A stretch of DNA of 55,280 nucleotides from Candidatus Omnitrophota bacterium (lineage in GTDB: Bacteria > Omnitrophota > Gorgyraeia > 2-01-FULL-45-10), in assembly GCA_018823705.1 (NCBI GenBank), contig JAHJHP010000009.1, forward strand, positions 1-55,280, given 5' to 3'. A program made the translations under genes and the position numbers. Below the pieces are notes generated by a model. The model was not told the DNA's origin. It worked only from the letters and a program-made list of their open reading frames with translations, and ran no database searches. This document shows positions 6,674-51,191 of the stretch, piece by piece (the stretch's first letter is position 1; every line of letters begins with the position of its first letter).

Positions 6674-7275
6674 CGTTTTCTGCCTTCCTTTTCTCTTCGC
6701 CTCGAGCGCTCAGTCTTTCTTCTCTCTTTTACGAGAAGCCACTTCACCGCTTCTAAAAAGTCTTTGAAGATATAGTCCGGCTTGACCTTCCAGGCCTTCA
6801 TCCCGTTCATATCGGTCTTGCCGGAAAGCACTAATATCGTACTCAGGCCCGCGAGCCTGCCCGCCAGAATATCCATCTCGCCATCCCCTATCATATAGGT
6901 ATCGCGGGCCGTCACGCTGTACTTCCTGATGGCTGCCTCGAGCATGCCCGGTTTCGGCTTCCTGCATTTACAGTTATCTTCGTTGGTGTGAGGACAGTAA
7001 AATACCTCGCTAATATTGCCGCCGCCCTTCTTTATTTCGGCCAGCATAGTGCTCGTTATCTCATTCAGCCTGTCTTTTGTAAAGAACCCCTTATTTATCC
7101 CGGCCTGGTTGGATACGACTATCACCTGTACCCGGTTGCGATTTAAGAGCGCCAGCGCCTCGATAGCGCCCGGCAGGAAGTGAAAGTCCTTCAGCTCGGT
7201 CACATACTCATGCCTGGTCCAGCCGCCCGGATCTTTATTGATGACACCGTCTCTATCGATGAATAACGTCTTCAT
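6670..7275 (-). CDS. gmhB: D-glycero-D-manno-heptose 1,7-bisphosphate phosphatase (HAD IIIA)
   Basis: FIDRDGVIN, VSNQAG, YCPH...CKCRKPKPGML, MIGD; LPS-type context. Confidence 0.8.
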   Translation of the reverse strand: MKTLFIDRDGVINKDPGGWTRHEYVTELKDFHFLPGAIEALALLNRNRVQVIVVSNQAGINKGFFTKDRLNEITSTMLAEIKKGGGNISEVFYCPHTNEDNCKCRKPKPGMLEAAIRKYSVTARDTYMIGDGEMDILAGRLAGLSTILVLSGKTDMNGMKAWKVKPDYIFKDFLEAVKWLLVKERRKTERSRRREKEGRKR

Positions 7276-8651
7276 ATTTTAATATCCTCTTTCAGCATAT
7301 GGGCGAGCCACAAGACAACGAGCGGCAGAAAATGCAGCATGAACCTACCCCACGTCTTGCTCGTGAAGAATACGACATCCACATAAGATACCATATAGAA
7401 TAGCACATATCCGCAGAAAGCCAGTATAAGCGATATTGAAATATATCTCTGCTCGGGGGCGAATATCTTCCTGGAGTGGAATATCGCGGCATATATCGCG
7501 ATCGGCCATAACAGTATCCACTTCTTCGGCCCGAATAACTGTTTCTGGAACTCATAAAGTATGGGCCCCATTTTATACAGCTGTTTAAACAGGTAAACCG
7601 GGTTCAGGTTGAAAAGGTTGATCTCGTCATTCACGATCCCGAACCTCTGTTTTACCCATATCCACGGGGCAAGTATCAGGGCTATTATAAAGACATACAT
7701 TACCGGAGCTATGGTAACTTTCCACGACGTATCTTTACGCGCCAGGACTGAAACAAAGAGCACTATCGAAGCATTTATAACGCAATAAAGCATGCCTTCG
7801 TTCTTGGTCCATCCGGCGAGCGCGACGAGTACAGCCGACAATCCCAGAATATGCAGGTCCTTCTTCTCTTTTATCCAGGCAAAGAGGAATATGGCGCTCG
7901 CGAAATAATAGAATGCAAGCGGCAGCTCCTGATACGCATTAGCCGCATAGGCATTGAACATCGGAATGCTCGCCAGCAGGAATGTGAAGAGCAGCGCGTA
8001 TGCGCGGCTCGCGAACCGGCGTATAGCGAAGTAGAGGATACAGAGTATTCCCACGAAGAAGAGCGGAAATATTAGCTTCACAAGCTGGTCATTCAGGTTT
8101 CTCATGGCCAAGTATAAAAAAGTCTCGCTAAGCGGTATATTCAGAGGATAGTCCGGGTGCGGAAAACCGTGGACCAGGCCCGGAAAATAGTTCTGCGGTA
8201 TGGCTTTTGCCAGAAAGAAGATCTTCGACTTTATCGCATATATAGCTACTGCGTCATACGCTTCAATGGGTTTTATGAGCGCCCTGAAAAAAGCGTAGGC
8301 CACTTCGAGCGTTATGCCGCACGTCAGGAAGATACTCAATGCTCTGTTCTTTTCTTTCGGAATGGTAGATCGTTCGCTGAAAGTGAACCCATCGCCGTAC
8401 TTCATATGCCGGTACACATTAATTGTAACGAGGATAGTCCACGGGATCAAAATTACCGGCACGCTGAACGTCAGGCCGAGTAAATAGAATATGAGCATCT
8501 CGAGCGATATGGTTCCGAGGCCGAGGGCGAACGAAATGAAGACCGCCTCCGAGAAAGATAGTTTATCGAACTTACCGAGCACTATGTACAGGACGTTAAA
8601 TCCGATAAATGTGGCCACCATCAGGGTGGCAATTAAGCTGATAAGTTCCAC
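7272..8651 (-). CDS. Multi-pass membrane glycosyltransferase, GT-C/ArnT-PMT-like
   Basis: About 12 hydrophobic segments; acidic first-loop motif YDAVAIYAIKSK, HPDYPL, WTKNEG; GTG start. Confidence 0.65.
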   Translation of the reverse strand: MELISLIATLMVATFIGFNVLYIVLGKFDKLSFSEAVFISFALGLGTISLEMLIFYLLGLTFSVPVILIPWTILVTINVYRHMKYGDGFTFSERSTIPKEKNRALSIFLTCGITLEVAYAFFRALIKPIEAYDAVAIYAIKSKIFFLAKAIPQNYFPGLVHGFPHPDYPLNIPLSETFLYLAMRNLNDQLVKLIFPLFFVGILCILYFAIRRFASRAYALLFTFLLASIPMFNAYAANAYQELPLAFYYFASAIFLFAWIKEKKDLHILGLSAVLVALAGWTKNEGMLYCVINASIVLFVSVLARKDTSWKVTIAPVMYVFIIALILAPWIWVKQRFGIVNDEINLFNLNPVYLFKQLYKMGPILYEFQKQLFGPKKWILLWPIAIYAAIFHSRKIFAPEQRYISISLILAFCGYVLFYMVSYVDVVFFTSKTWGRFMLHFLPLVVLWLAHMLKEDIKI

Positions 8652-8656
8652 AGGCG

Positions 8657-9058
8657 CTACTCCTCTACTCTCTTGATCGTATATTGAGAGATATCGATTA
8701 TAAAATCGGGATCCGCGGTTTTAACATTCGGATATAGATAGTAAACGGCCTTTCTCGATTCCAGGGCTCCCTCGTCCATTCCTATTATATTATATGCGCT
8801 ATTTTCAGGCATCGTCGTCTTGCAATAAGTTAAAAAATCGTACAGCCTGTCGCCTGTTACATAGGAGTGTTTACCTTCAAGCGTCCTGGTCAGTAGATTT
8901 TTATAATCACGGATATTATTCTTTACGAAGAGCTCTCTCGCCAGGAATCCTATCCATAGGACAACCCAGACGATAAATAATATCTTTAAGATTGCTTCGG
9001 GCCTTCGGCCCTCGCAATGACGGTGTATTTTGTCCTTATACCACATTTTCAACGACAT
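8657..9058 (-). CDS. Small membrane-anchored hypothetical protein with a palindrome-derived N-terminal peptide
   Basis: TGATG overlap with the upstream stop, one TM segment (ILFIVWVVLWIGFLA), and a YYLYP motif like the soluble tails of GT-C proteins. Confidence 0.75.
   Translation of the reverse strand: MSLKMWYKDKIHRHCEGRRPEAILKILFIVWVVLWIGFLARELFVKNNIRDYKNLLTRTLEGKHSYVTGDRLYDFLTYCKTTMPENSAYNIIGMDEGALESRKAVYYLYPNVKTADPDFIIDISQYTIKRVEE
8989..9022. repeat. Half copy of the 4761-4851 palindromic element, in frame within a CDS
   Basis: AGATTGCTTCGG-GCCTTCGGCC-CTCGCAATGACG matches the right half of the intergenic element. The minus strand encodes RHCEGRRPEAI. Confidence 0.85.
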
Positions 9059-10455
9059 CAGTTTGCCACTATCCAGCGCATAAAACGCCTCGCTAAAAAA
9101 CCGAAATGTTTTGCCGACTGTATCGACTTTAACTGGTACATTATAATATGCGGCCGTAAATAAAATTTAGCAAAGGCGAGGCGATGCAGGCTCTTCAGCT
9201 CTTTTCTCGTTATCCCCGTGGGCACGTAAGCGGCATTGGTAAAATAAAACCTCTCCCAGTCTACATCCTTAAGTTCACCGCTGGCAAGTAATTTCGCATA
9301 GCTTTCCGTTCCCGGAAAAGGCAGATACGTGAAGAAGTTGGCCCTCTTTAGCGGAAGCTCAGCGGCAAAGTCGATCGTCTGCCTGATAGATTCCGGCGTC
9401 TCTCCGGGAAAGCCCAGTATAAAGAAACCGGCTATATCTATACCCGCCCTATCGATCTTATTGACGCATTCCCTTATCCTGGCCACGGTGATGCCTTTTC
9501 TCATCTCACTCAACACTTCATCCGAGCCGGACTCGATCCCAAGCGAAATCATATAAAGCCCCGTCTCTTTCATCAGGCCCAGGAGCTCATCATCCAGCGT
9601 ATCCATCCTGACACCGTTTGGAACAGCCCATGTCATGCCGAGATTCAGGGCCTTCAGCTTCCGTAAGAAATCCTTTACGTACTCCTTGTCCATTGTAAAA
9701 TTGTCATCAATGATATGAAATTCTCTTATTCCGAAATCATTATTGAGCATCTTTAACTCGCCCAGCACATTATCGATAGACCTGCGCCGTATCTTCTTTC
9801 CGGAGACCAAACTGCCCGCGCAGAAAGTGCATGGGTAAGGACAGCCCCTCGTCACCATGATCGGCGCTATCGGAAACTGTTTAAAGAACGCGCCGTGCTG
9901 AGACTCCGGATACTCCTGAGGCTTGATAAGGTCCCAGGCCGCGAGCCCCAGGCCATCGAGGTCATCCTGTATGACATTCGGATTGATCTTTATTGTCTGG
10001 CCATCTCTGAATGCGAGTCCGGGGATGTCGGAAAAGTCTTTCACGTCGGTTTTGTTCGCGCCACGTTCAATCGCTTTGACAAGCCGTGGAAACCCTGTCT
10101 CCGCTTCGCCTACGAATAGAAAATCGAGATCCTTCTCCGCTTTAAGCGTCTCTTCCGGCAGAGCCGAGGAATGCGGCCCGCCGATGACGGTCACGATATC
10201 CTTATTGAAAGCTTTTGCCGCCTTGAGAGCCTGCCTTATAAAAGGAAGGTCGAATGTATAGCATTGCAGCCCGAGGATCTCCGGGTTATACTCTTTAAGG
10301 AGAGCCATAAATTTATCTATGGTGAGATCGTCCTTAATGCAATCGACCAGCCTGACCTCATGTTCCTTCCGGATAGCGCTAGCCAGATACCCAAGCCCTA
10401 TCGACGGCTGGATATGGTCGCTCATATTGAAAGGTTTGGCTAGCAGTACTTTCAT
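9058..10455 (-). CDS. Cobalamin-binding radical SAM protein (class B-like)
   Basis: N-terminal B12-binding-type domain (PSIGLGYLASA, GGPH, GEAE), RGCPYPCTFC, IIDDNF, GIESGS, GFPGET. Confidence 0.9.
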   Translation of the reverse strand: MKVLLAKPFNMSDHIQPSIGLGYLASAIRKEHEVRLVDCIKDDLTIDKFMALLKEYNPEILGLQCYTFDLPFIRQALKAAKAFNKDIVTVIGGPHSSALPEETLKAEKDLDFLFVGEAETGFPRLVKAIERGANKTDVKDFSDIPGLAFRDGQTIKINPNVIQDDLDGLGLAAWDLIKPQEYPESQHGAFFKQFPIAPIMVTRGCPYPCTFCAGSLVSGKKIRRRSIDNVLGELKMLNNDFGIREFHIIDDNFTMDKEYVKDFLRKLKALNLGMTWAVPNGVRMDTLDDELLGLMKETGLYMISLGIESGSDEVLSEMRKGITVARIRECVNKIDRAGIDIAGFFILGFPGETPESIRQTIDFAAELPLKRANFFTYLPFPGTESYAKLLASGELKDVDWERFYFTNAAYVPTGITRKELKSLHRLAFAKFYLRPHIIMYQLKSIQSAKHFGFLARRFMRWIVAN

Positions 10456-11153
10456 TAATCGATAAACCTGTATTTGAGGATCGTCCAGAGCGCGCCAAAA
10501 CCGTCTTTCCAGGATATCTTCTTCCCTTCGGCATAGCTCCTGCCATAGTAGGATATCGGTATCTCGTAGATCCTCAGGGATTTATCTTTCAGTATCTTCG
10601 CGGTAAGTTCAGGCTCGACAGAAAAATCTTTTGACCGTATGTTGATACGGGCGATGACTTCTTTACGGAACATCTTATAACAGGTCTCGATGTCGGATAG
10701 AGTAGAATTATACAGTAAGTTCATCGTGAATGTCAGCAGGGTATTTCCGGCCTTATGCCAGAACATATGCACGCGCTGCGGCTTACCTCCGGAGAGCCTC
10801 GAGCCGTAGACGACGTCAGCCATACCGTCCTCTATGGGCTTTGCCATCTCCATAAATTCATTCGGGTCATATTCGAGGTCCGCGTCCTGCACAGTGACTA
10901 TCTCACCCGTAGCAGCCTTGAAGCCGGTACTGAGCGCCGCGCCCTTGCCGCTATTCTTTTCATGGAGCAGAACTTTTACTCTGGGATCGAGCTTGGTGTT
11001 TTTCAGGATATCCTTCGTCCCATCAGTAGATCCGTCATCTACTACTATGAGCTCTTTCACCATCTCGAGCTTCAGGACCTTTTCTATTATCTTTAAGACT
11101 GTATTCTTCTCATTGTAGACAGGCATGACGACCGACAGGATACCTTTTCGCAT
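10455..11153 (-). CDS. GT2, DPM1-like polyprenol-phosphate sugar synthase
   Basis: VVMPVYNE, VDDGSTDGT, NSGKGAA, QDADLEYDP, VVYGSR, DIETCYK, EGKKISWKDG. Confidence 0.88.
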   Translation of the reverse strand: MRKGILSVVMPVYNEKNTVLKIIEKVLKLEMVKELIVVDDGSTDGTKDILKNTKLDPRVKVLLHEKNSGKGAALSTGFKAATGEIVTVQDADLEYDPNEFMEMAKPIEDGMADVVYGSRLSGGKPQRVHMFWHKAGNTLLTFTMNLLYNSTLSDIETCYKMFRKEVIARINIRSKDFSVEPELTAKILKDKSLRIYEIPISYYGRSYAEGKKISWKDGFGALWTILKYRFID

Positions 11154-11170
11154 AATTCACATCCTTTAGA

Positions 11171-12244
11171 TTAAAAAACTTTAGACTTCTCGGCCAAAAT
11201 CTTTAGCAGTCCTTCGCTATCCGGGTTAATGACAACATCCGCTCCATGGAGAGGCCTTGTCATCTTCAATAATTTACCGAAAAACTCGTTATCCGTCAAT
11301 AGCACTTCCAGCTTCTTTTTCTTCTTACGCTTAAAAATCTTGTAGATCGATGCGATGCCAAAGAGCGCAGGCCGGAGATCTACCCGCCTTATATCGAAAT
11401 GATCTATAACTACAGGCCAGTTCAATCCCTTCTTCATGAATACTATGATCTGGTGTCCATTCCTGGCCACGCTCGTAGCGATCTGGTCCACTTTGTTATC
11501 GAACTTTTGCGTATCTATAAAATATCCCACTCTCACATGCCTTCCCCACCGCTTGAAGAATATCTTCTCATTATCGCTGAAGAGGTCCTGGTTATTCTCC
11601 AGCGCCTTGAAACTTACGTTCTCCTTGTGATATACGTACGCCGCCTTGGCGCGGGCCGTCTTATATCCGAGCTTCTGGGCTCTCTTGCAGTAATCCGTAT
11701 CGTCAAAATATCCCACGTGGTAGATCTCGTCCAATAGCCCGACGCGCTTGATCACGTCTCTCGTCAGTACCATGCAGAATCCCCGGCATGTGTAGAGCTC
11801 CTGGATCTGCCGTTTGAGCGGTTTCAGAGTAAGAGCGTAATCTTCTATCGACTTATCTTCGGGATACTGCCCGGAGGTATTGCTCGATGGGTTCAATAAC
11901 CCTATGGACGGGTTCGCCTCCATGACGTCTATCATCTCCTCGAGCCAGCCCGCGGCGGCTATGGTATCGTTATTCATGATACAGAGATACGGCGCATCGG
12001 ATACGACGAGGCCCTGATTCACGGCCTTCACGAATCCGAGGTTCCTATCGTTACGTATCAATAGGAAATCCAGGTCCTTATTATCTTTAAGGCCGGCCAG
12101 ATAATCTCGTGCGGGAGCATCGCTCCCGTTATCGATCACTATGAGCCTGTAAGGATACCCCGTATTCTTCACTATGGACTCGACGCATTCACGCGTTACT
12201 TCAGGCTGATTCCAGACAGGGATGATTATATCGCACTTACTCAT
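11171..12244 (-). CDS. GT2 glycosyltransferase with unknown C-terminal domain (paralog 1 of 4)
   Basis: CDIIIPVWNQ, IDNGS, NLGFVKAVNQG, MNNDT, GFC, GYFDDTDY; FKRWG junction followed by about 115 aa. Confidence 0.88.
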   Translation of the reverse strand: MSKCDIIIPVWNQPEVTRECVESIVKNTGYPYRLIVIDNGSDAPARDYLAGLKDNKDLDFLLIRNDRNLGFVKAVNQGLVVSDAPYLCIMNNDTIAAAGWLEEMIDVMEANPSIGLLNPSSNTSGQYPEDKSIEDYALTLKPLKRQIQELYTCRGFCMVLTRDVIKRVGLLDEIYHVGYFDDTDYCKRAQKLGYKTARAKAAYVYHKENVSFKALENNQDLFSDNEKIFFKRWGRHVRVGYFIDTQKFDNKVDQIATSVARNGHQIIVFMKKGLNWPVVIDHFDIRRVDLRPALFGIASIYKIFKRKKKKKLEVLLTDNEFFGKLLKMTRPLHGADVVINPDSEGLLKILAEKSKVF

Positions 12245-13004
12245 CTTTTTTTACCAGCTCCCAATATTTTGCCCATTTAAAGAAATTGATGGACGCGAAT
12301 AGGACTCCGAAGATAAGCCCGTAGGCTCCGTCTTTATATCCCTGTTTCTTCACATATGACTTCCAGAATACTTTGAACGTTCTTTTTATCAGCCCTTTTC
12401 TGATCTCACGTTCGCTCAAAACTCCATCGGTATCGAGCATCTTCTTTGCGGCGATCCCAGCGTATCTATTCTGTCTCTCTATAAATTGATTTATCGAATC
12501 GAACGGATAGTGGTCTATATCCGCGTCGATCATGCCGATGTTACCTTTGTAAACCGGCATCTCGTGGACATCGCCTTCATACTTTACATGCTTTTTATTT
12601 ACCAGATTGGGTATATAGTGGTGGAATCCTCCGTGATCCATAGAATGGCCCAGGAAGAAGTTCCTTCTCCTGAATTTATAGATGACCGCGGCCCCATCCG
12701 TGGCGAGCATGGCGGCAAGCTTATCCCTAAAACCTTCTGTTACGACGTCATCGGCATCAATATGCAGGACCCAGTCATATTTGGCGTTTTCGTTGCCTAC
12801 ATTCCGTTCATCGGCAAAAGACCCGCTGAATTTATGCTCTATGACTCGCGCGCCCCTGGACTTCGCTATCTCGGCCGTTTTGTCAGTACTGAATCCGTCG
12901 ACCAAGACTACATCATCCGCCCAGGTGATACTTTCAAGGCACCTGGCTATGCGCTTTTCTTCGTTCTTTGTGATGATCGCTACTGTGACTTTAATCTTTT
13001 CCAT
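12237..13004 (-). CDS. GT2, KdtX/WaaE-like LPS core glycosyltransferase
   Basis: IITKNEE, VDGFSTDKT, HIDADD, GDVHE, GYKDG. Start moved to the ATG at 13004 (MEKIKVTV) by comparison with the adjacent paralog. Confidence 0.85.
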   Translation of the reverse strand: MEKIKVTVAIITKNEEKRIARCLESITWADDVVLVDGFSTDKTAEIAKSRGARVIEHKFSGSFADERNVGNENAKYDWVLHIDADDVVTEGFRDKLAAMLATDGAAVIYKFRRRNFFLGHSMDHGGFHHYIPNLVNKKHVKYEGDVHEMPVYKGNIGMIDADIDHYPFDSINQFIERQNRYAGIAAKKMLDTDGVLSEREIRKGLIKRTFKVFWKSYVKKQGYKDGAYGLIFGVLFASINFFKWAKYWELVKKDE

Positions 13005-13809: not shown

Positions 13810-13810
13810 C

Positions 13811-14833: not shown

Positions 14834-14940
14834 ATTATAGTTTAGTTATAGCTAAATTGCATGATGTTTTTTTGCCATTTTTGATCATATCCGGAAGGTA
14901 ACTTTATCGGTGGGTAGCGCTATTTATTATCTTCTAAAAC

Positions 14941-15243
14941 TTACACATTGGCCAGAAATTGTTTAACCTGGTTATGGTTCCCGACTAGCATTGCTATGCA
15001 CTTTTCATCCTCTCGCCTTATAATCACTCGAATAGTTCCTTCAACGCCGGCTTCATGATAGGGCTTTCTTAGCTGTTTATAAAAAAATCGTGGGGAGATT
15101 TTTTGCGCTTCATATAGATCGCACCCACTAGAATAATAAACAGTTAAAGACTCAAGTATCAGCCCTACTATTTTTTTCTGTTCATACCCAAGGCGCTCGA
15201 GGCTTCTGTTAAAAGAAGGCCTGTAATAAAGATACAGGGGCAT
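14941..15243 (-). CDS. Putative RelE/ParE-superfamily toxin
   Basis: 100 aa, 3 bp downstream of an AbrB-type gene. The pattern YYRPSFNRSLERL...KQLRKPYHEAGV..IRVI...VGNHNQVKQFL resembles RelE-like folds. Confidence 0.55.
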   Translation of the reverse strand: MPLYLYYRPSFNRSLERLGYEQKKIVGLILESLTVYYSSGCDLYEAQKISPRFFYKQLRKPYHEAGVEGTIRVIIRREDEKCIAMLVGNHNQVKQFLANV

Positions 15244-15246
15244 TGG

Positions 15247-15504: not shown

Positions 15505-15524
15505 CTTTCTCACCTCCCGCATGA

Positions 15525-43563: not shown

Positions 43564-43573
43564 GCGCCAGGCC

Positions 43574-44401: not shown

Positions 44402-44423
44402 GGCGGAGCCTTTCGCAAAAGAT

Positions 44424-46385
44424 CTAATAGAGCTTAGGAATCTCGTTTATGCGCAGCAGTACCTCTTCAAGATTGAAGCCTATCAGCTGGCCAAACTCCT
44501 GCAGCATCTCTAGACGCGGTTTATTATCCTCCTCGGTAAGCTTCATTGCCTCATCCCGAGTGATAAGGCCTTCGCGGACCTGGTTGCTGCGAAAATTGTC
44601 AAATTCGGAGAACCCCGCGACCGTGTGATAAATATAATCTATAAAAGCGGTATGGCCGTCTCCCATCCGCCACTGGTTCTTGCCGTATCTTTCATTAGCC
44701 TCCCAGCCGTATTCTTCTTTTAGGGTCCGCTCTATAAGTTTCTCATCCCACGGAAGATAACGGAACAAGTACACATAGTCATCCTTGCTTATAAAGCTCG
44801 CGTAATACGCAAAAATGCTGTCGAGGAAAGACTCGTTGATATAGGCCGGATTCGTGACATATTCTTTTATGTACCAGAGAGCGATACGGGCCTTTACCAT
44901 CGTGTTATAATTATACAACTTGGTATTATTAACAAGATCCTGGTCTACCCCGCAAAATCCGATTTTGAACTCCATCTGCTCCAGCTGCTGCCCCGCGGCA
45001 AACACGGTAAGCTTTATACCCGTCTCCTTTCGAAGCTGTCTTCCATAATAATAAAACATCTTATCGCCTGCCATAAAGAGCGGCACCATGCCGAGCGAGG
45101 GCTTCTTAAGCCATGCGTATATGTTCTTTCTGATATATCGGCGTTTGGCGTGGATATCCGCGGCGCGGATAAGGTGCTCCACGCCAAGTTTACCGGTTAT
45201 TCTCGCCTGATTCCGCCTGGCAAGGTCAGTTACCATCGCCCAATCATATGTATACGCGATCGGGTGCATATTAAATTCTGTCTTCAGCACATGCAGGCCA
45301 TATGAACTGTCCCTGCCCCCGCTAAATCCTACGATACAATCCGGCTCGCCATTCTTTGACCGGTATCTGGCCAGGACTTCCTCGAGAGCTTCTTTGCCCA
45401 GAAATTCCTGTTTTTTGTACTTTCTGCAGTAGTTACATACACCATCTTCATCGAACGTAATGAATGGGTATGTATGCGGTAGTACGCACTTCGTGCAGCG
45501 GCGCAGCGCCGTATGGGTCACGCTCAGGTCGATGATATCGTAGATCTTTATATTGCTGCTTATCATCGGCGATTCCGCATGATCATCAGATAACTTAAAG
45601 ACTTGCGGCGCCAGGTCTTCGGCATTTATGACAGCGGCGGTGAACGGTTCCAGCTGTCTGACGCTCTTCACATCATAAATGAGCTTAAGAGAATTTTTCC
45701 GCAAGAATCCCTCGACGATGAACCGTTCTGACCCAAACACAAAGACACCCTGTCTGGCGTCGGACCAATAATACAGGGCCCCCATATTGGTGGCAATAAC
45801 CATAGAGGCGGACAGATCACATAAAAATCCTATGGAAGCAGAGCCTTCTACTTCTCGATAGATACGCCTTATAGCCCCAGGGACACCTTTTTCTATTTCG
45901 TAATATTTATTAAGCAGATTATATAATACCCATGTGTCGGATCCCGAATGACTGCCCGGCAGGTCTTTAAGCTCAGGGTGTTGCTGCCGCAGATACTCAT
46001 CGTTGGTGATGATACCATTATGAACTCCCACCATATGGCCGGCGTTTATAGGCTGGTTGTTCTCGGCAATAGCCTGGGAGCCATTCGTGACAAGCCGTGT
46101 GTGGCCGATAGCGATAATGGGCGCTGTTATGATCATCTTCCCGGAGCGTGGCGCGTCGACAACGCTGGAATCTATATAACTCTTAAATGACGCGCTCTTA
46201 AGCATAGCAGTCGGATTTTTCGCTTTTTTATAGACCGATATTTTGCTCCCCGAAAGGATGGAAAATCCGGCAGCCTCACATCCGCGCCTCTGCGAGAGCT
46301 TGACCAGACTCCCGAGCGCGCCCGTAAGCTCTCCCTTAGTTATGTCAGCGTTATTGTTCGCTATGAAACCGAATATTCCACACAT
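44424..46385 (-). CDS. Fusion: class II glutamine amidotransferase + WbpG/WbuX/PseA-like N-acetyl-sugar amidotransferase
   Basis: MCGIFG (Ntn Cys), RRG, GHTRLVT, NNQP, VHNGII, SDT; then RCTKCVLP...FDEDGVCNYC, PP-loop FSGGRDSS, VREGLITRDEA. Confidence 0.85.
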   Translation of the reverse strand: MCGIFGFIANNNADITKGELTGALGSLVKLSQRRGCEAAGFSILSGSKISVYKKAKNPTAMLKSASFKSYIDSSVVDAPRSGKMIITAPIIAIGHTRLVTNGSQAIAENNQPINAGHMVGVHNGIITNDEYLRQQHPELKDLPGSHSGSDTWVLYNLLNKYYEIEKGVPGAIRRIYREVEGSASIGFLCDLSASMVIATNMGALYYWSDARQGVFVFGSERFIVEGFLRKNSLKLIYDVKSVRQLEPFTAAVINAEDLAPQVFKLSDDHAESPMISSNIKIYDIIDLSVTHTALRRCTKCVLPHTYPFITFDEDGVCNYCRKYKKQEFLGKEALEEVLARYRSKNGEPDCIVGFSGGRDSSYGLHVLKTEFNMHPIAYTYDWAMVTDLARRNQARITGKLGVEHLIRAADIHAKRRYIRKNIYAWLKKPSLGMVPLFMAGDKMFYYYGRQLRKETGIKLTVFAAGQQLEQMEFKIGFCGVDQDLVNNTKLYNYNTMVKARIALWYIKEYVTNPAYINESFLDSIFAYYASFISKDDYVYLFRYLPWDEKLIERTLKEEYGWEANERYGKNQWRMGDGHTAFIDYIYHTVAGFSEFDNFRSNQVREGLITRDEAMKLTEEDNKPRLEMLQEFGQLIGFNLEEVLLRINEIPKLY

Positions 46386-46403
46386 ACCGTAACCCCTCTC
46401 TCC

Positions 46404-47819
46404 TTAGGCGGCGGGATAAAATAGTTTTTTGTAATCAACCGTAGAATGCGTCAATCCGAACCTCTCCTTTGCCTCATCCTGTTTTACCGGATCATCAAAA
46501 GACCGCAAAAGCTCATCTGTTAATTCGTCATAAGCGACATGCATAACGCCGCTCATCCCATCGAGATCAATATAAGAAAGATAGTCGGGATGGTTTAGCT
46601 GGACGACAGGGCGTCCGATCAAAAGAGCTTCCTCCAAAACCGTGGTGCTCATTCCTATAACCGATACGGCTCCCGCTATATCCGAGCGCAAAGAAGTATC
46701 GCCCGAGACCTCGATGGCCCCGGAGCTCCTGCTCTGATCCACCCATCTCCGCAATTCTCTGCCTGGTTCCGCGTGTGAATGCATCCGTAACCTTAATGGC
46801 AATGATACGTTGCTTTTTTTCAGGAGATCGCGCAACGAACCGATCACCGCCTCATTGTCAAAACGCGCCAGTCCCGAAACAAACAGATAGTAATGGCCGT
46901 CTTTGCCGGCAGGCTCCGGCCGAGACGACTTCCACTGGCTGTATCTACAACTGCACCCCATCAAAAAAGTCGTCTTTGGAAAATACGGCTTGAGAAGACG
47001 AATAACCCTTTCTTCAAATGCATAAAAAACGTCGGGTAATGCCAGGCCCTGCAAAGTTTCCTCCGGATAAGAAAAATACCAGAGTTTACCGCTTGAAACG
47101 GACGCATGTTGTACGGTATATGTTCTTATGTCATGTTTTGAGGCGATGTGCCAAACCACCCTCGCATATGAATGCATCTCATGGATACATCCGATCTTTT
47201 TTATCCGGCGATGCTCTATGATCTCGTTCAGTATCCGCTGCAAGTATAAATTGCGTTGCCATTGCAAACTAAAAACCCATGAATACCATTCCAATAAAAT
47301 CAATGCTCTACTGACAATGCTGCCCCGGATCTTAAAAAAAGCGTATATACCGCAGACCGTCATTATACAGACGATCCTCAGGGAAGCAAGAGCCGATATC
47401 GGTATAAAAAGTTTCGCGCGGCTGCCGCATTGTTGAACAGGCCCGACAACCAGCATTGCATCATCATCGTCGGTATCTACGTATTTTGTCTTGTAACTAT
47501 CACCTGCAGCCGCATATCCACATTCAGAAGTTACGATCAGAATGCTATCTTTTATCGTTCCGTACAAGCCATAGCCAAACCTGGGCGGCCGCAGTGTCCG
47601 CATCAATCCCTTTAACAGGCCCGTTACCGATGCGATCAGCAACTGAAAAAACAATTTGAAGAGATGCCGCTGCCTGTATCCGCTGTGCCACAAATTTGAC
47701 GCGTCGGGGCTCCTGACACTTACGCTGGACGAAAAGATAAGCGGAACCAGATCCCGTGAAGCCGCTCCGACCGCGGCGCCGACAAATCTGGCGGCAAGCC
47801 GCTGGAAATCAGTACCCAT
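46404..47819 (-). CDS. Hypothetical surface-carbohydrate protein, probable GT-B fold transferase
   Basis: HEMHSYAR..., TVQHA, LPD, RMH, STTVLEEALLIGRPV resemble capsule/nonulosonate transferase-like folds; family not confirmed. Confidence 0.5.
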   Translation of the reverse strand: MGTDFQRLAARFVGAAVGAASRDLVPLIFSSSVSVRSPDASNLWHSGYRQRHLFKLFFQLLIASVTGLLKGLMRTLRPPRFGYGLYGTIKDSILIVTSECGYAAAGDSYKTKYVDTDDDDAMLVVGPVQQCGSRAKLFIPISALASLRIVCIMTVCGIYAFFKIRGSIVSRALILLEWYSWVFSLQWQRNLYLQRILNEIIEHRRIKKIGCIHEMHSYARVVWHIASKHDIRTYTVQHASVSSGKLWYFSYPEETLQGLALPDVFYAFEERVIRLLKPYFPKTTFLMGCSCRYSQWKSSRPEPAGKDGHYYLFVSGLARFDNEAVIGSLRDLLKKSNVSLPLRLRMHSHAEPGRELRRWVDQSRSSGAIEVSGDTSLRSDIAGAVSVIGMSTTVLEEALLIGRPVVQLNHPDYLSYIDLDGMSGVMHVAYDELTDELLRSFDDPVKQDEAKERFGLTHSTVDYKKLFYPAA

Positions 47820-47851
47820 TATACAATATCCCCGCTTGACACGACTTTCGA

Positions 47852-49405
47852 TTACCGTGATTTAAAGATCCTGTGCAAAACGTTAAAAAGCTTATCTCTC
47901 CATGGGCCATCTTTCTCACATAGCCTGACAAGAGGATAGGCGATCTTAGGGACTTTTCTATAAAGGCTAAAGGTCTTAGCGAGCCCTACGATCTCCGCCG
48001 GAGGTAACTGCGGCATATTCAGATAGCTCTCAGTGTAGCGATAGTTTTCGCATTCATCTGGCAGAAAACCGGCTTCTACAGCCATCTTGCGGATAGCCGT
48101 GCCCTCCCATGGCTGCAGGATCATAACGCTCGAATTCTGCGCCCTGGCCTTTCGATTCAGCTCAATAGTCTCAAACACGTTACCTCTTGTCTCAAAAGGC
48201 ATACCTACCATATTAAGTGTACTCGTGCGGATACCATACTTATTGAGAATGCTTATGCCTCTGATTATCTGGCTGTTCGTCATCTTCCTGTTCAGCACCC
48301 TTCTACGGATATCCTCGCTTCCGGATTCAATTCCGGCAGACACGTTTACACAACCCATCTCCTTAAGAAGCTTTGCCTTGTGCTCGGTAACCATATCGAG
48401 CCTGGCGGCAATAAGAAATGGAAGGGCTATCTTTTTATAGCCCTGAGCAAACTCCTCCATCTCCTTATCGCTATATAGAAAAAATTCCTCATCCCAGAAT
48501 TTCATCATCTCAAGGTCGTATTTATCTTTAAGAAAAGATATCTCCTCTATAGCGCGCGGAATGCTCTTTTTACGAAAATAGCGCCCCTTCCCTTTGTATA
48601 GTTCCTGCAGCCGGTCGTTATTGCAATAGGAGCACCTGTGAGGGCAGCCTCTCGAGAGCTCGAGATGTCCATAGCGATATACTTTACCGCAAAAAGGCTT
48701 GTAAAAATGGCGTTTATCAAAAAGTGTCCAGTCAGGAAAAGGTAGCGCGTCAAGGTCTTCGATAAGCCTGATATCATTCTTCACCACCCCCGAAGAAGTC
48801 TTGACCCAAAGGTTACGGACAGCATCATAGGGTTTCCCCTCCCGGATGCGCAGGCACAGGTCTCGAAACGGCGCCTCCCCCTCACCAACGCATACGATAT
48901 CAACGTTCGCATTTTTTATGAACTTTTCAGGATTCATCGTCACGCATTTTCCGCCGATAATCAATGGGCAGTTTTTTCGGGAAATACCGTCCACGAGAGC
49001 CATGGCCAGAGGATAATTGTAAGAGGTCGGGACTGTAACGGCTATGATATCCGGATCAAACTCCTTTATCTTAGCGTTAAGATCGCCTATATGATCCCGC
49101 TCCTCACGGACAACGCCGTATTTTGTCATGTCAGCCGGCAGGAATTCTCCCACTTTCTCGTTTTTCTGTCGGTCTTCATAATTGGTTATCTTGTAGTATG
49201 TTGTATCGAATATATCGACCGTACACTGTTCCTTCCGCGCTATAGCGATAAGCGATGAAAGCCCTATCGGCAAGAAACCCTCAATGCCTGACATGGGGTT
49301 TACAAATAGTATCTTTATATTAACGATATTCCGGGACTCATCCGCGGCGCCTGGAATTCCGGATACTTCTTCATTGGAATTGATCATGCTCTGTTCTCCT
49401 TGCAT
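47852..49405 (-). CDS. Cobalamin-binding radical SAM protein
   Basis: LPIGLSSLIA, IIGG, GEGE, SRGCPHRCSYC, WDEEF, GIESGS, GMPFET; TAATG overlap at the start. Confidence 0.9.
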   Translation of the reverse strand: MQGEQSMINSNEEVSGIPGAADESRNIVNIKILFVNPMSGIEGFLPIGLSSLIAIARKEQCTVDIFDTTYYKITNYEDRQKNEKVGEFLPADMTKYGVVREERDHIGDLNAKIKEFDPDIIAVTVPTSYNYPLAMALVDGISRKNCPLIIGGKCVTMNPEKFIKNANVDIVCVGEGEAPFRDLCLRIREGKPYDAVRNLWVKTSSGVVKNDIRLIEDLDALPFPDWTLFDKRHFYKPFCGKVYRYGHLELSRGCPHRCSYCNNDRLQELYKGKGRYFRKKSIPRAIEEISFLKDKYDLEMMKFWDEEFFLYSDKEMEEFAQGYKKIALPFLIAARLDMVTEHKAKLLKEMGCVNVSAGIESGSEDIRRRVLNRKMTNSQIIRGISILNKYGIRTSTLNMVGMPFETRGNVFETIELNRKARAQNSSVMILQPWEGTAIRKMAVEAGFLPDECENYRYTESYLNMPQLPPAEIVGLAKTFSLYRKVPKIAYPLVRLCEKDGPWRDKLFNVLHRIFKSR

Positions 49406-50250
49406 TACCTTTTTCGGGCTATTATATACATGATATCGTATAAGTTCAAATAGAATTGCGCTCTACCCAATCCGCTCTTGCGCAAAATATCACAAAACCA
49501 TCTTCCTCCCTTATTGGCAAGCGATATCCTGTGCAAAGTCATATCGATACTGCGATAGAATCCGCAATAACCGCTATATATAACGTCAAATCCGTTATTA
49601 TCGAGCAGTTTACTGAGCGTCTGCTTGGAAAAATAATGAATGTGCGTAGGCGCATTCATAATGCGCCATTTATTCTTTTTCATGCGGGCGTTCAGGCTTC
49701 CGACATCACCGGTTGTTATAGCTACCAGCGCACCCTTATCCATCATATTCTTTGATATCTTAGATAAGCACCCGGCAGGGTCGCTCAAATGCTCTATCGT
49801 GTCCCACAGGCAAACGACGTCGAACTTCTGCCCATTAAAATCGTGTGGCAAAAAGTCGTCGGTTACCACGTCAAGTCCGAGCTCATCCCTGGCGTACGCG
49901 ACGCCGTCCGCTGTAACATCAATGCCCTTGAGAGTGCCAAAGTAAGATCTGGCGACATCAAGAAAAAATCCGTAAGCACAGCCGATTTCAAGAAGTCTCT
50001 TGTGCCTCATGGGATCTAAGAATTTGCGCAACTTCTTAAGGCGTAGCTTAAAATTATCCCGGGTGATCTTTTTATCGGCAAGATAATCGCTATATTCACC
50101 ACCGAAAAAGTAGTTCTTACCGTATAATTCCGACAGCTTATTATTCTGCGATGGCATATTACAAAATACGTGACCACACCCCAAACAGCGCAAGATACCC
50201 GGATAGGCCTGTTCCACATCGACGCGGTCACATATGATGCATCTGTTCAT
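49405..50250 (-). CDS. Class I methyltransferase with N-terminal CxxC pairs
   Basis: CIIC...CLGC, LEIGCAYGFF, WDTIEHL, PTHIHYF. Confidence 0.9.
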   Translation of the reverse strand: MNRCIICDRVDVEQAYPGILRCLGCGHVFCNMPSQNNKLSELYGKNYFFGGEYSDYLADKKITRDNFKLRLKKLRKFLDPMRHKRLLEIGCAYGFFLDVARSYFGTLKGIDVTADGVAYARDELGLDVVTDDFLPHDFNGQKFDVVCLWDTIEHLSDPAGCLSKISKNMMDKGALVAITTGDVGSLNARMKKNKWRIMNAPTHIHYFSKQTLSKLLDNNGFDVIYSGYCGFYRSIDMTLHRISLANKGGRWFCDILRKSGLGRAQFYLNLYDIMYIIARKR

Positions 50251-51191
50251 TTTACAGCCGCCTCCGTTACTATGAATGGCGGGCGCCCTTTAGTCTGATC
50301 ATAGATTCTGCCGACGTATTCGCTCAATATGCCTATTGCAACCAATTGAACGCTACCCAGGAAACAGACAGCCATGACAATATCTGTGTATCCTGGCGGC
50401 ACCGGTATATTTACTATTCCAAGCACTTTAAGGACCCATATAGTTAATACCATGATTATATACGCTGAAGAGCAACCTAGTATCACAAGAGCGAAGAGCA
50501 TCACCAGGTGCAGGGGATATCTTCCGAAGGAGAATATACCATCGAGGGCAAGCCTGGAGAGGGATCGAAATGAATATTTAGGAAGACCGCTATGCCTCTT
50601 TCCGACATTGTAAGGTATCCCCTGCTGCCTGAAACCGATCCAACTTACCTGACCGCGCAAGAATTTGTGGCACTCAGGCATATCGAGTAATACGCTAAGG
50701 ACTTTTTTGTCGAGAAGCCTGAAGTCAGACTGACCGAAACTCAAACTTAACCCCGATACTTTTGAGATGAACCGGTATGAGGCCTTGACGATCAGATTTT
50801 TAAGGAAAGGTAAATTAGCGTTTTCCTTCGTCGTATAGACAACCTCTGCGCCATTACGCCACATCTCAACCATCTTAGGTATCAGTGAAGGCGGGTGCTG
50901 CAAATCCGCATCCATGGTTATGCAAGCATCGCCTGCAGCCTTGGTCATCCCCGCGAAGATCGCACACTGATGCCCGAAGCTTCGCGAAAGTGAAAGATAG
51001 CCGACCTTCGGGTCCGCATTACGCAACCTCTTTACCGCGTCCAGCGACCTATCGGTGCTTCCGTCATCGACGTATATCATCTCGTAATCTACGCCTGCTT
51101 CAGAGCATGCCTGTTTCACCTGATTATAAAGCTCTTCTATGTTGCTCTCTTCATTATGCACAGGGAAAACTATCGATATTATATTCTTCAT
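50247..51191 (-). CDS. GT2, GtrB/ArnC/YkoT-like polyprenol-phosphate sugar synthase
   Basis: FPVHNEE, VDDGSTD, LSRSFGHQ, MDADLQHPP, SDFRL, two TMs, EYVGRIY..KGRP. Start placed at ATG 51191. Confidence 0.9.
   Translation of the reverse strand: MKNIISIVFPVHNEESNIEELYNQVKQACSEAGVDYEMIYVDDGSTDRSLDAVKRLRNADPKVGYLSLSRSFGHQCAIFAGMTKAAGDACITMDADLQHPPSLIPKMVEMWRNGAEVVYTTKENANLPFLKNLIVKASYRFISKVSGLSLSFGQSDFRLLDKKVLSVLLDMPECHKFLRGQVSWIGFRQQGIPYNVGKRHSGLPKYSFRSLSRLALDGIFSFGRYPLHLVMLFALVILGCSSAYIIMVLTIWVLKVLGIVNIPVPPGYTDIVMAVCFLGSVQLVAIGILSEYVGRIYDQTKGRPPFIVTEAAVK

Follow-up and report, generated by a model that had tools for sequence, protein, structure and literature searches.

Candidate lipid-carrier glycosylation units and B12-type radical SAM enzymes in a surface-glycan locus of an Omnitrophota bacterium

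The stretch of DNA analyzed here, 55,280 nucleotides from the small genome of a groundwater Candidatus Omnitrophota bacterium (the window; assembly GCA_018823705.1, contig JAHJHP010000009.1, positions 1–55,280), brings three candidate lipid-carrier sugar-transfer units together with a swarm of B12-type radical SAM enzymes (rSAMs) in a surface-glycan cluster, a combination not previously described. The GT2/GT-C pairs are credible as lipid-carrier glycosylation units of the Gtr/Arn/Pgf kind. For the B12-rSAMs a sugar-tailoring role is very probable, given their synthase-coupled positions, the enrichment of GT-C genes near them, and their fusions to carbohydrate-active and methyltransferase domains. 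We give an even chance to the fuller reading, in which a slot for radical-SAM tailoring is built into Gtr/Arn-type glycosylation: three side-branch units, with the B12-rSAMs as exchangeable tailoring enzymes of the branch sugar.

The window could represent most of an LPS-type surface-glycan super-locus, a proposal that we regard as evenly balanced. The conserved arm would comprise block A, a GT2 array, and GT9, ligase-like, WecA-like, and epimerase genes, and the strain-variable arm would span 23.6–55.3 kb. LpxC and a corrinoid salvage cluster are encoded in the genome. Within the window, Pfam finds 11 GT2 genes (PF00535); three GT2s are polyprenyl-phosphate-sugar synthases (10455–11153, 25052–26107, and 50247–51227), and there are three GT-C membrane proteins (GT-C_A, GT-C_B, and GT-C_C). 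The original prediction had placed synthase, rSAM, and GT-C genes together in three blocks, A–C, and every gene it named is found at its coordinates on the minus strand, as are all features described below. Pfam and NCBIfam profiles identify two SPASM rSAMs and seven B12-rSAMs rather than the five B12-rSAMs that had been implied. Five match PF02310 and PF04055 above cut-off, as expected (9058–10455, 23603–25048, 27752–29239, 40187–41707, and 47852–49405); the additional two lie outside all blocks (17905–19266) and at the contig end (54509–55279).

Three GT2/GT-C pairs

Block A (7272–11153) begins with a DPM1-type polyprenyl-phosphate sugar synthase (10455–11153), a GT2 of 232 residues with no TM segment (PF00535, 1.4e-39). 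Its best solved relatives are DPMS (5mlz, 2.5e-17), ArnC (3e-13), and GtrB (5e-11), and synthases of this kind make up the top seven of its 11 solved-structure matches; it falls below NCBIfam equivalog cut-offs (AglJ, 118 bits versus 325). The B12-binding rSAM that follows (9058–10455; 465 residues, CxxxCxxC motif) overlaps its neighbor by 1 nt at either end; the junctions of block A are as tight as those of B and C. Next is a bitopic protein of 133 residues (8657–9058) with a single N-terminal TM segment and an invariant YYLYP motif, for which no Pfam or NCBIfam family was matched, and then GT-C_A (7272–8651), an ArnT-like transferase of 459 residues consisting of the membrane domain only. 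The AF2 model of GT-C_A (pLDDT 85, pTM 0.90) matches ArnT (5f15) with a Z of 21.4 and an rmsd of 3.9 over 311 aligned residues; the 47 top entries in the structure comparison all belong to the GT-C superfamily, and the next entry has a Z of 5.3. Its PMT_2 score of 23.0 bits is below the Pfam cut-off of 26.1 bits, and the first core loop carries an invariant D133. The modeled complex of the 133-residue protein with GT-C_A scores 0.86 (best control, 0.00), and in 14 of 16 loci its gene immediately precedes that of GT-C_A; we predict that the small protein is a GT-C_A subunit. Downstream, a GmhB-like heptose-bisphosphate phosphatase gene (6670–7275; NF006506, 170 bits versus a cut-off of 178) is syntenic with block A in relatives.

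In block B (23603–31083), GT-C_B (29188–31083; 631 residues, PMT_2 30.8 bits) has a GT-C core at about residues 200–628 and an extra N-terminal membrane domain. Its AF2 model (pLDDT 76.5) matches Pmt4 with a Z of 24.6 and an rmsd of 3.4 over 327 aligned residues, and ArnT with a Z of 22.5. The 50 structure matches listed all belong to the GT-C superfamily, and S244 and D246 are invariant. The rSAM at 27752–29239 is translationally coupled to it through an ATGA overlap, in which the GT-C_B stop occupies 29190–29188 and the in-frame rSAM ATG 29191–29189. A class I methyltransferase (26969–27727), a TM-bearing GT2 (25996–26967; PF00535), a GtrB/ArnC-type synthase (25052–26107), and a second B12-rSAM (23603–25048) complete the block. 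The synthase carries C-terminal TM segments (265–325) and matches PgfS (245 bits) and ArnC (166 bits), both under equivalog cut-offs.

Block C (40187–51227) has a class I methyltransferase and a GtrB-type synthase at 49405–51227. The synthase itself (50247–51227; TM 231–301) is 39% identical to that of block B and matches GtrB (5ekp) over its full length (4.3e-64), and all seven of its solved-structure matches are polyprenyl-phosphate-sugar synthases; the DPM1/GtrB assignments of the original prediction are thus borne out. These genes are followed by a B12-rSAM of 517 residues (47852–49405; PF04055 7.7e-24, PF02310 5.5e-11), by a methyltransferase, a GATase-WbuX amidotransferase, and a 471-residue protein without an assigned family (43574–47819), and by the PMT/ArnT-like GT-C_C (41707–43638; 643 residues, PMT_2 26.4 bits). 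The assignment of GT-C_C to the GT-C fold is based on its Atlas feature score (0.99) and its TM to PMT/PMT_2 clusters (0.73), completing the predicted set of three; hhalign to A1/A3 gives a probability of only 3–6%. D72–E73 is invariant in the three sequences compared. The GT-C_C stop overlaps the start of the next B12-rSAM (40187–41707) in a TGATG at 41707, so that the overlaps foreseen for B and C are both present. This rSAM has a hydrophobic C-terminal tail (19-mer 458–476, score 2.43), as does its clade mate L025_1813, and at one related locus (L052) a SPASM rSAM takes the place of the B12-rSAM after GT-C_C.

The three blocks are not copies of one module, as had been proposed. BLASTP among the three GT-Cs gives no mutual match at E≤1e-5, the rSAMs share 23–32% identity (BLASTP), and conservation in related genomes differs widely (GT-C_A 30/41, GT-C_B 19/41, GT-C_C 4/41). 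What survives of a radical-tailored, lipid-carrier glycosylation system is a set of credible units and very probable sugar-tailoring rSAMs, but not a single module.

In the Arn pathway (ArnC, ArnD, ArnE/F, and ArnT), which modifies lipid A with aminoarabinose, a GT2 loads a sugar onto undecaprenyl phosphate (Und-P), the lipid-linked sugar is edited by an enzyme in the cytoplasm and then flipped, and a GT-C of the ArnT type carries out the transfer. All three window synthases have ArnC among their best solved relatives, and in structure GT-C_A matches ArnT best. However, the synthases score 152–166 bits against an ArnC equivalog cut-off of 529, GT-C_A lacks the periplasmic domain of ArnT and is paired with the 133-residue protein, and the candidate editing enzyme is a B12-type rSAM instead of a deformylase. 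The Gtr system (GtrA/GtrB/GtrC) glucosylates O-antigen, and Pgf is a streptococcal system. The window shares with them a GT-C and a GtrB-type GT2 that carries a TM hairpin at its C-terminus, and PgfS is the top NCBIfam match of both GtrB-type genes, although at 245–260 bits against a cut-off of 500. The window also differs in its intercalated rSAM and methyltransferase genes, and a search of the genome found no GtrA-family flippase.

Genomic positions of the B12-rSAMs

B12-rSAMs are expanded in this Omnitrophota lineage, with 17 matches in the 1.7 Mb of the window genome and up to at least 26 in relatives. Two orthogroups, those of the 9058 and 23603 genes, are fixed directly behind a GT2 of the polyprenyl-phosphate-sugar-synthase type at distances from genera to classes. 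The order synthase–[rSAM]–133-residue protein–GT-C_A–GmhB recurs in 16 loci, with the synthase staying adjacent to the GT-C_A unit in relatives. Orthologs of the 9058 rSAM (64–85% identity) fill the slot between synthase and 133-residue protein in eight of these loci and, where present, never sit elsewhere; all eight rows of this clade are directly upstream of the 133-residue protein gene and seven are behind the synthase, the eighth ending at a contig end. In the other eight loci the rSAM is missing and the rest of the unit persists, so the rSAM is dispensable to the unit; in three of them (L042, L046, and L047), methyltransferases lie beside the unit. Orthologs of the 23603 rSAM (63–67% identity) follow a synthase-type GT2 in all five distinct loci with a visible upstream gene, the synthase being GtrB-type in the window and DPM1-type elsewhere. 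In the clade of the 27752 rSAM, two of three rows are directly behind a GT-C_B homolog. The trees of GT-C_B and its neighboring rSAM are congruent in three of four testable cases.

Five genomes from other families contain 36 PMT_2 genes, of which 14 are no more than 3 kb away from an rSAM (2.2 expected) and 18 no more than 5 kb (2.9 expected), a roughly six-fold enrichment of GT-C genes against a null that ignores clustering inside glycan loci. In 100,000 gene-order shuffles of the 43 cluster genes of the window, by contrast, the direct adjacency of two of three GT-Cs to an rSAM (p = 0.21), the placement of all three within two genes of one (p = 0.14), and the direct adjacency of two of three synthases (p = 0.21) are singly not beyond chance; jointly, p = 0.03. 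Support for GT-C/rSAM linkage comes from other genomes and not from the window alone. Pairing with a GT-C is also not the rule: among 57 rSAM rows from related loci, most of them retrieved through GT-C queries, 12 adjoin a GT-C and 30 have neither a GT-C nor a synthase neighbor, and these counts overstate independence because the loci are kin.

That shuffling reproduces the window adjacency would fit a different explanation, which we consider somewhat unlikely: that the B12-rSAMs are general main-chain tailors acting on nucleotide sugars or Und-PP-oligosaccharide alongside Leloir GT2s and GT4s, with no dedicated module and with GT-C proximity merely reflecting the dense filling of the locus by rSAMs. 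Half of the 36 PMT_2 genes lack an rSAM within 5 kb; the 17905 rSAM sits among GT9/GT2 genes, and its clade (three rows) never adjoins a GT-C; and own-genome paralogs on contigs C14, C17, and C32 stand beside epimerases, methyltransferases, and Wzx-like genes where GT-C is absent. Some relatives are rSAM-GT4 fusions (L018 and L020), and one protein joins B12-rSAM, GT2, and GT4 (P0004); its GT2, the sole rSAM-fused GT2 outside the phylum, is nearest to Leloir-type GT2s and not to the DPM1/GtrB type. The rSAM-GT4 fusions favor action at the level of the NDP-sugar or the Und-PP-glycan over action on the lipid-P-sugar. A main-chain role is harder to reconcile with two orthogroups that keep their post-synthase position over deep divergence, one despite a swap of synthase subtype, with the stop/start overlaps joining GT-C and rSAM genes, and with the six-fold enrichment, subject to its null.

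Stage and chemistry of the proposed tailoring step

Beyond the folds, families, synteny, and fusions that were observed directly, we infer the substrate, stage, chemistry, and acceptor of the side-branch units; the acceptor may be LPS or protein. The cytoplasmic GT2 of each would load a sugar onto polyprenyl phosphate, and the GT-C would transfer it at the outer face of the inner membrane. The B12-rSAMs, proposed cytoplasmic sugar tailors drawn from the lineage-wide expansion, could modify the branch sugar as an NDP-sugar or, more likely, as the polyprenyl-phosphate sugar between loading and transfer, a position like that of ArnD and of HpnK/HpnJ; at least four of the seven (9058, 23603, 27752, and 40187) would serve side branches.

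GenK and GenD1 are class B rSAMs that tailor sugars in aminoglycosides. Together with AprD4 they resemble the proposed enzymes as B12-domain radical SAMs acting on unactivated sugar carbons, but their substrates are soluble pseudo-oligosaccharides of antibiotic pathways, whereas those in the window would belong to a cell-envelope glycan on lipid carriers, and the window family has expanded to at least 17 members per genome. Precedents for an rSAM on a lipid-linked sugar are HpnI/HpnK/HpnJ and Cds, in which a lipid receives a sugar from a GT2 and the lipid-linked sugar is then remodeled by a radical SAM enzyme (PMC13459092). These make bacteriohopanetetrol cyclitol ether and calditol, respectively; the context in the window is an LPS-type glycan and not a hopanoid, the carrier is presumably polyprenyl phosphate with the product passed on by a GT-C, and the rSAMs score at most one third of the HpnJ cut-off (188 versus 577 bits).

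The tailoring slot appears to be exchangeable, with class I methyltransferases filling it elsewhere, and by this analogy C-methylation is the most likely rSAM chemistry. Fusions of rSAM to methyltransferase (L019) and of methyltransferases to DPM1-like synthases in either order (MT-GT2 or GT2-MT; L015, L016, and L051) also occur in relatives. It is improbable, in our estimation, that the rSAMs instead rearrange, ring-contract, dehydrate, or epimerize branch sugars in the manner of HpnJ, OxsB, or AprD4 to give carbocyclic or deoxy sugars. In NCBIfam, HpnJ is the top match of 9058, 23603, 47852, and the 54509 fragment, BchE that of two others of the seven, and the MJ_1487 family that of one; AprD4, a dehydratase that is not known to use B12, is the nearest solved structure (2.3e-44), OxsB is matched as well, and class I methyltransferases already provide methylation in the same loci. 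Yet all NCBIfam matches are far under equivalog cut-offs, the methylases TokK, TsrM, and CysS are also among the solved enzymes matched, most characterized B12-rSAMs are methylases, and methyltransferases take the slot in loci that lack the rSAM, which hints at methylation as a common theme.

We consider it very improbable that the rSAMs have non-sugar substrates (for example lipid A, membrane lipid chains, the polyprenol carrier, cofactors, or peptides) and are merely co-located with glycan genes. Weak NCBIfam matches to lipid-modifying and RiPP families (TIGR04072, ApyD, and HpnR) and hydrophobic tails in eight of the 57 rSAM rows are in keeping with such roles, but relatives are fused to carbohydrate-active GT4, GT2, and GH123 domains (the last in P0005), a sugar-pathway gene is present within 3 kb of at least 12 of the 19 paralogs in the same genome, and Pfam and NCBIfam show neither precursor-peptide nor lipid-synthesis genes in the window.

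Other genes of the locus

Between block A and the 17905 rSAM (17905–19266; PF02310 9.5e-23, PF04055) lies an array of six Leloir-type GT2 genes (11171–12244, 12237–13085, 12991–13809, 13811–14833, 15673–16731, and 16721–17908; PF00535) with a 100-residue ORF (11171–17908 overall). Four of the genes are paralogs with 34–45% identity, and the array is retained in relatives. At the far end, 51373–55279 encodes a SPASM rSAM, an AAC(3)-like N-acetyltransferase, a DUF4910/M28-like protein, and the seventh B12-rSAM, which is incomplete at the contig end and matches HpnJ model positions 254–440. The region 31080–40149 holds two methyltransferases, GDSL/SGNH, GT4, a 136-residue TM protein, DUF4330, GT4-DUF218, GT2, and a SPASM rSAM; its GT4, DUF4330, and GT4-DUF218 genes recur in relatives. 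The four-gene core at 19263–23601 (GT9 heptosyltransferase-like, Wzy_C ligase-like, WecA/MraY-like, and NDP-sugar epimerase/dehydratase) is covered by contigs from other populations and has an identical order in Omnitrophota loci L011, L013, L014, L023, and L027.

Gene content and the three-block arrangement

The window spans one entire contig; the genome to which it belongs measures 1.70 Mb and is 99% complete. The genes of the window are tightly packed. Every ORF of at least 200 aa in its 55,280 bases is on the minus strand, bar three nested plus-strand ORFs (208–277 aa). The original prediction described three blocks (A, B, and C), each combining a polyprenyl-phosphate-sugar synthase, B12-dependent radical SAM (rSAM) genes, and a GT-C membrane transferase, and all the genes and domains that it named are borne out by Pfam and NCBIfam. 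It counted five B12-rSAMs in the blocks; the window has seven, plus two SPASM-type rSAMs. On the minus strand, B12-binding and Radical_SAM domains (Pfam) are found together at 9058–10455 (block A), 23603–25048 and 27752–29239 (block B), and 40187–41707 and 47852–49405 (block C), and we refer to each rSAM by its left coordinate. A sixth full-length minus-strand gene lies outside all three blocks (17905–19266), and a seventh is truncated by the contig end (54509–55279). Also on this strand are the SPASM-type rSAMs (39043–40149 and 51373–52422), a short DPM1-like GT2 in block A (10455–11153), GtrB/ArnC-like GT2s with C-terminal hydrophobic segments in blocks B (25052–26107) and C (50247–51227), and three genes matching Pfam PMT_2: GT-C_B (29188–31083, 30.8 bits), GT-C_C (41707–43638, 26.4 bits against a cut-off of 26.1), and GT-C_A (7272–8651, 23.0 bits, below that cut-off).

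By Pfam and NCBIfam, the glycosyltransferases of the window comprise eleven PF00535 GT2s, two GT4s, and one GT9, accompanied by five class I methyltransferases, a WecA/MraY-like gene, a Wzy_C ligase-like gene, an NDP-sugar epimerase/dehydratase, a GATase-WbuX amidotransferase, and a GmhB-like phosphatase. At 44424–46385, a class II glutamine amidotransferase domain is fused N-terminally to a WbuX-type N-acetyl-sugar amidotransferase, an arrangement that suggests an acetamidino sugar. A trio at 51373–54497, consisting of a SPASM rSAM, an AAC(3)-like N-acetyltransferase, and a DUF4910/DUF2172/M28-like protein, is probably a further sugar-tailoring set. The SPASM rSAMs of the window have a moderate match to BlsE (3.5e-15) and a weak one to DesII (8e-6), both sugar-modifying rSAM families.

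The overlapping GT-C/rSAM junctions claimed for blocks B and C are present (ATGA and TGATG, respectively), and block A is equally tight: neighbouring genes overlap by 1 nt at 10455 and at 9058, 5 nt separate GT-C_A from the gene before it, and GT-C_A overlaps GmhB by 4 nt. Longest-ORF calls overlap by 112 nt (25996–26107) and 95 nt (12991–13085). Because the GT2 domains begin at residue 52 of 25052–26107 and residue 34 of 12237–13085, these two genes probably use later start codons.

The blocks do not repeat a single cassette: their GT-Cs have no mutual BLASTP match at E ≤ 1e-5, and their rSAMs are 23–32% identical. When gene order was shuffled, with seven rSAMs among 43 cluster genes, the observed adjacency of an rSAM to two of three GT-Cs had p = 0.21, placement of all three GT-Cs within two genes of an rSAM p = 0.14, and adjacency of an rSAM to two of three synthases p = 0.21 (joint p 0.03). 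Thus, the window alone does not establish a module. The three-block pattern is real but was drawn too regularly, and its interpretation as a module is supported in part.

GT-C transferases, their synthases, and a small predicted partner protein

The assignment of the membrane proteins to the GT-C superfamily holds for all three, by fold comparison of models for GT-C_A and GT-C_B and by Atlas and Pfam matches for GT-C_C. A model of GT-C_A built from 17 orthologs (pLDDT 85, pTM 0.90) aligns with ArnT over 311 residues (Z 21.4, rmsd 3.9); its best 47 structure entries all belong to the GT-C superfamily, and the next entry falls to Z 5.3. The GT-C_B model (pLDDT 76.5) aligns with Pmt4 over 327 residues (Z 24.6, rmsd 3.4) and with ArnT at Z 22.5, and all of the 50 entries listed are GT-C proteins. 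Fold comparison was required because the sequence profiles of GT-C_B and GT-C_C gave no match to the PDB at E ≤ 1; Foldseek alone did no better than E values of 3e-3 to 6e-3. GT-C_C falls in PMT/PMT_2 clusters of the ESM Atlas (feature score 0.99, TM 0.73), and hhalign relates it weakly to the GT-C_A and GT-C_B families (3–6% probability). In all three proteins, the loop that follows the first core helix holds an acidic residue that is invariant: D133 in 17 GT-C_A sequences, D246 in 12 GT-C_B sequences (in which S244 is also invariant), and D72-E73 across three GT-C_C sequences. An acidic residue in the first extracytoplasmic core loop is what we take to define the GT-C (ArnT/PMT-like, PF13231) family.

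The predicted donor of the GT-Cs is a polyprenyl-phosphate-linked sugar, a synthase-type GT2 being encoded in the same unit. The synthase assignments of the three GT2s stand, with DPMS, GtrB, or ArnC as the nearest characterised relatives. DPMS, ArnC, and GtrB make up the top 7 of 11 solved matches of 10455–11153, and the match of 50247–51227 to solved GtrB is full-length (4e-64), with polyprenyl-phosphate sugar synthases accounting for all seven of its matches. The synthases miss the NCBIfam equivalog cut-offs for AglJ (118 against 325), PgfS (245 and 260 against 500), and ArnC (166 and 152 against 529), and none reaches that for PpgS; thus, no named synthase is orthologous to them.

In the three-component Gtr system, a small GtrA-family flippase accompanies GtrB and GtrC. 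Here, by contrast, the GtrA family (PF04138) was not found anywhere in the 99%-complete genome, in a search whose control was positive in 8 of 14 genomes. Both GT-C_A (residues 1–100) and GT-C_B (residues 1–200) carry conserved additional membrane helices at the N-terminus, beyond the GT-C core, which spans residues ∼200–628 in the GT-C_B model; the first 101 aa of GT-C_A and 215 aa of GT-C_B match no Pfam family. As no GtrA-family flippase was found, these extensions may help to handle the lipid-linked donor.

In the GT-C_A model, residues 103–459 alone align, to ArnT 26–364, so GT-C_A is a membrane domain that lacks the periplasmic domain of ArnT. The gene next to it in block A (8657–9058) encodes a 133-aa protein with a single N-terminal transmembrane segment and an invariant YYLYP motif. 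This protein matches no known family at E ≤ 5, which, together with its one transmembrane segment instead of four, rules out a GtrA/ArnE-like flippase. Its two nearest Atlas clusters are mostly from Omnitrophota. A complex model of GT-C_A with the 133-aa protein scored 0.86, against 0.00 for the best of three controls; in calibration, solved complexes attain that mark in 58 of 80 cases and mismatched pairs in 2 of 110, counts that hold only roughly here, as our own alignments were used. The runs share at least 98% of contacts, with a partner pLDDT of at least 82. In the model, the transmembrane segment packs on GT-C_A helices ∼221–230 and 375–391, and conserved residues 102–113 sit on GT-C_A 126–147, the loop with invariant D133; the YYLYP region rests on that loop. 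Binding of the 133-aa protein to GT-C_A is thereby backed, not proven, and it is possible that the small protein substitutes for the missing periplasmic domain. Such a two-subunit enzyme would be a new architecture among ArnT-like enzymes.

An exchangeable position for the radical SAM gene

Related genomes show which parts of the arrangement are kept. Across 16 block A loci, the 133-aa gene directly precedes GT-C_A in 14, and in the 12 nearest loci all or part of the set GmhB, MGDG-synthase-like gene, UDG, PriA, and Fmt comes after GT-C_A. Eight of the 16 loci hold the B12-rSAM, which always separates the DPM1-like synthase from the 133-aa gene. Four loci have the synthase, 133-aa, and GT-C_A genes side by side with no rSAM, and in three other rSAM-less loci a class I methyltransferase adjoins the unit. 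The slot is thus fixed, and its occupation by an rSAM is optional.

Deep orthogroups whose gene neighbours are conserved emerge from a tree of 57 rSAMs. In the clade of 9058, all eight members lie upstream of the 133-aa gene and seven lie behind the synthase. A synthase-type GT2 precedes the rSAM in all three tree members of the 23603 clade and in 5/5 distinct loci when two metagenome loci are included (the metagenome scan gave five loci, one duplicating L015); the partner is GtrB-type in the window and DPM1-type in the other loci. Two of three members of the 27752 clade lie behind a GT-C_B homolog, as does the rSAM pair of L017 and L018 (2/2). The 17905 clade is found among GT9 and GT2 genes, never adjoining a GT-C. 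Overall, the immediate neighbour is a GT-C in 12/57 and a synthase-type GT2 in 15/57, shares that are inflated because most loci were retrieved via GT-C queries. GT-C_B relatives were retrieved with a 4-sequence alignment, the 12-sequence profile being too divergent.

Recurrence of GT-C/rSAM adjacency elsewhere was assessed in an unbiased sample of five well-assembled genomes from other families, picked on assembly quality and rSAM count. Fourteen of 36 PMT_2 genes have one of the 86 rSAM matches no more than 3 kb away (2.2 expected), and 18 have one no more than 5 kb away (2.9 expected), but the random-placement null ignores the residence of both families in glycan loci. In phylogeny, GT-C_B and its neighbouring rSAM are congruent in three of four testable cases. 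No rSAM lies within 10 kb of eight distant GT-C_B-like genes from other phyla. The window's own genome holds a fourth set on another contig (C59:13711–30875), with a GT-C_B-like gene, three epimerase/dehydratases, a GtrB-type GT2, a methyltransferase, and a B12-rSAM. One related locus, L026, comes from a record titled Planctomycetia, yet it is syntenic with Omnitrophota loci and its genome belongs to the window's class; the record is probably mislabelled.

Domain fusions in relatives bear on the substrate. B12-rSAM and GT4 share single frames in L018 (904 aa) and L020 (976 aa), B12-rSAM and a class I methyltransferase share one in L019 (719 aa), and the DPM1-like GT2 is fused with a methyltransferase, in both orders, in L015, L016, and L051. 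In a large protein collection, P0004 (1271 aa; from a Deltaproteobacteria MAG according to its source) joins B12-rSAM, GT2, and GT4, and P0005 joins B12-rSAM to a GH123-type domain. These fusions argue strongly that the substrates are sugars. The rSAM-GT4 fusions point to NDP-sugar or Und-PP-glycan steps, and the GT2 of P0004 is closest to the window's Leloir-type GT2s, not the DPM1/GtrB type; hence, the lipid-phosphate-sugar stage is not specifically indicated by the fusions. Fusions of rSAM to PMT_2 or to DPM1/GtrB were not seen among the six proteins scored of 8000 candidates, which is weak evidence of absence.

Proposed radical SAM chemistry and variability of the locus

All six full-length B12-rSAMs have both Pfam domains above cut-off, and the RGCxxxCxxC motif is invariant. 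None is HpnJ, BchE, or another named B12-rSAM equivalog, every curated cut-off being missed (best scores, HpnJ 188.7 against 577.6 and BchE 175.3 against 481). The 40187 enzyme bears a hydrophobic C-terminal tail. In the window's own genome, 19 ORFs match the window-rSAM profile at E < 1e-25, at least 12 of them with a sugar-pathway gene within 3 kb, and contig C13 (30746–36478) encodes CobS, CbiB, and a BtuF-like binding protein in a cluster for corrinoid salvage and assembly. Within the window's class, one or more such rSAMs (E ≤ 1e-30) are present in 50 of 61 genomes, and counts reach at least 26 per genome in genomes of 1–2.7 Mb; four genomes from other phyla have 2, 0, 4, and 3 matches. 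Tandem forms also occur, with three rSAM modules in one 1565-aa frame of a relative (G059:C15:320–4342) and tandem rSAMs in the proteins P0001 and P0003. In another relative, a B12-rSAM module (G063:C1:1248224–1249597) sits inside a 45,379-aa open frame.

Taken together, the system is a variant of lipid-carrier (Gtr/Arn-type) envelope glycosylation with an exchangeable radical-SAM tailoring slot, amid a lineage-wide expansion of B12-rSAMs in the glycan loci of Omnitrophota. In the mechanism with most support, many Leloir glycosyltransferases would assemble an LPS-type glycan on a carrier primed by WecA, and the three GT-C enzymes would add single sugars from polyprenyl-phosphate-sugar donors. 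The B12-rSAMs would be cytoplasmic tailoring enzymes, each tied to one particular step, with at least 9058 and 23603, and probably also the GT-C-coupled 27752 and 40187, serving the GT-C branches. The fixed place of block A beside GmhB and the closeness of GT-C_A to ArnT suggest lipid A or inner core as the acceptor.

The window rSAMs may bind cobalamin and transfer methyl groups, and methylation is the likeliest theme since methyltransferases alternate with the rSAM in its slot or are fused to the synthase. Rearrangement or dehydration is also conceivable: among solved enzymes, the sugar dehydratase AprD4, which is not known to use cobalamin, comes nearest, ahead of TokK, TsrM, OxsB, and CysS, and HpnJ is the top NCBIfam model for four of the seven rSAMs, far beneath its cut-off.

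More tentatively, and with real doubt, we consider that Omnitrophota could practise combinatorial radical editing of polyprenyl-phosphate-bound sugars, in which dozens of B12-rSAMs carry out C-methylation or rearrangement, two-subunit or N-extended GT-Cs install the products, and the exchangeable rSAM/methyltransferase slot gives rise to a hypervariable locus. To our knowledge, a polyprenyl-phosphate-bound sugar has never been shown to be a substrate for a radical SAM enzyme. If this reading holds, radical SAM chemistry would join the bacterial envelope glycosylation toolkit, and the very small bacteria of this widespread, uncultured phylum would be predicted to bear C-methylated or carbocyclic sugars on their surface. 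It would also offer concrete, testable synthase and rSAM pairs for many class B radical SAM enzymes without known substrate and might explain why genomes of 1–2.7 Mb retain as many as 26 or more oxygen-sensitive, B12-demanding enzymes.

As had been supposed, a literature search found no described pathway joining B12-rSAMs to GT-C, polyprenyl-phosphate-sugar, or O-antigen pathways, although supplementary tables of Omnitrophota papers may list such genes. The HpnI/HpnK/HpnJ and Cds systems are cases in which a radical SAM enzyme remodels a lipid-linked sugar (PMC13459092). A preprint describes an Omnitrophota strain swarm with a hyper-variable O-antigen cassette (10.64898/2026.05.20.726742); the word "radical" is absent from its text. 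In the available portions of two other Omnitrophota preprints, radical SAM is mentioned only as a domain in giant proteins.

The window's locus is variable as well, and its DNA is also present in groundwater metagenomes of three studies. Contigs of other groundwater populations, one of them related at ∼90% identity, cover a conserved core at 19.0–23.6 kb, and several pass into unlike sequence at 23.55–23.60 kb (23548–23601), the border between the epimerase and rSAM genes. A kept core with a variable arm beyond it agrees with synteny in related loci. Cover in run X4 is low over 23.7–39 kb, which does not equate to absence.

The genome encodes LpxC and has Wzx-like genes on contigs C3, C14, and C32. 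At its right end, the window has no nucleotide overlap with any contig, C14 included. The end of C14 carries an rSAM N-terminal fragment (C14:11970–12755) that stops ∼10 residues before the window's truncated rSAM begins, and its Wzx-like gene lies at 10777–11574; with these two genes, the locus may continue on C14. The left end of the window overlaps contig C29 by 35 nt.
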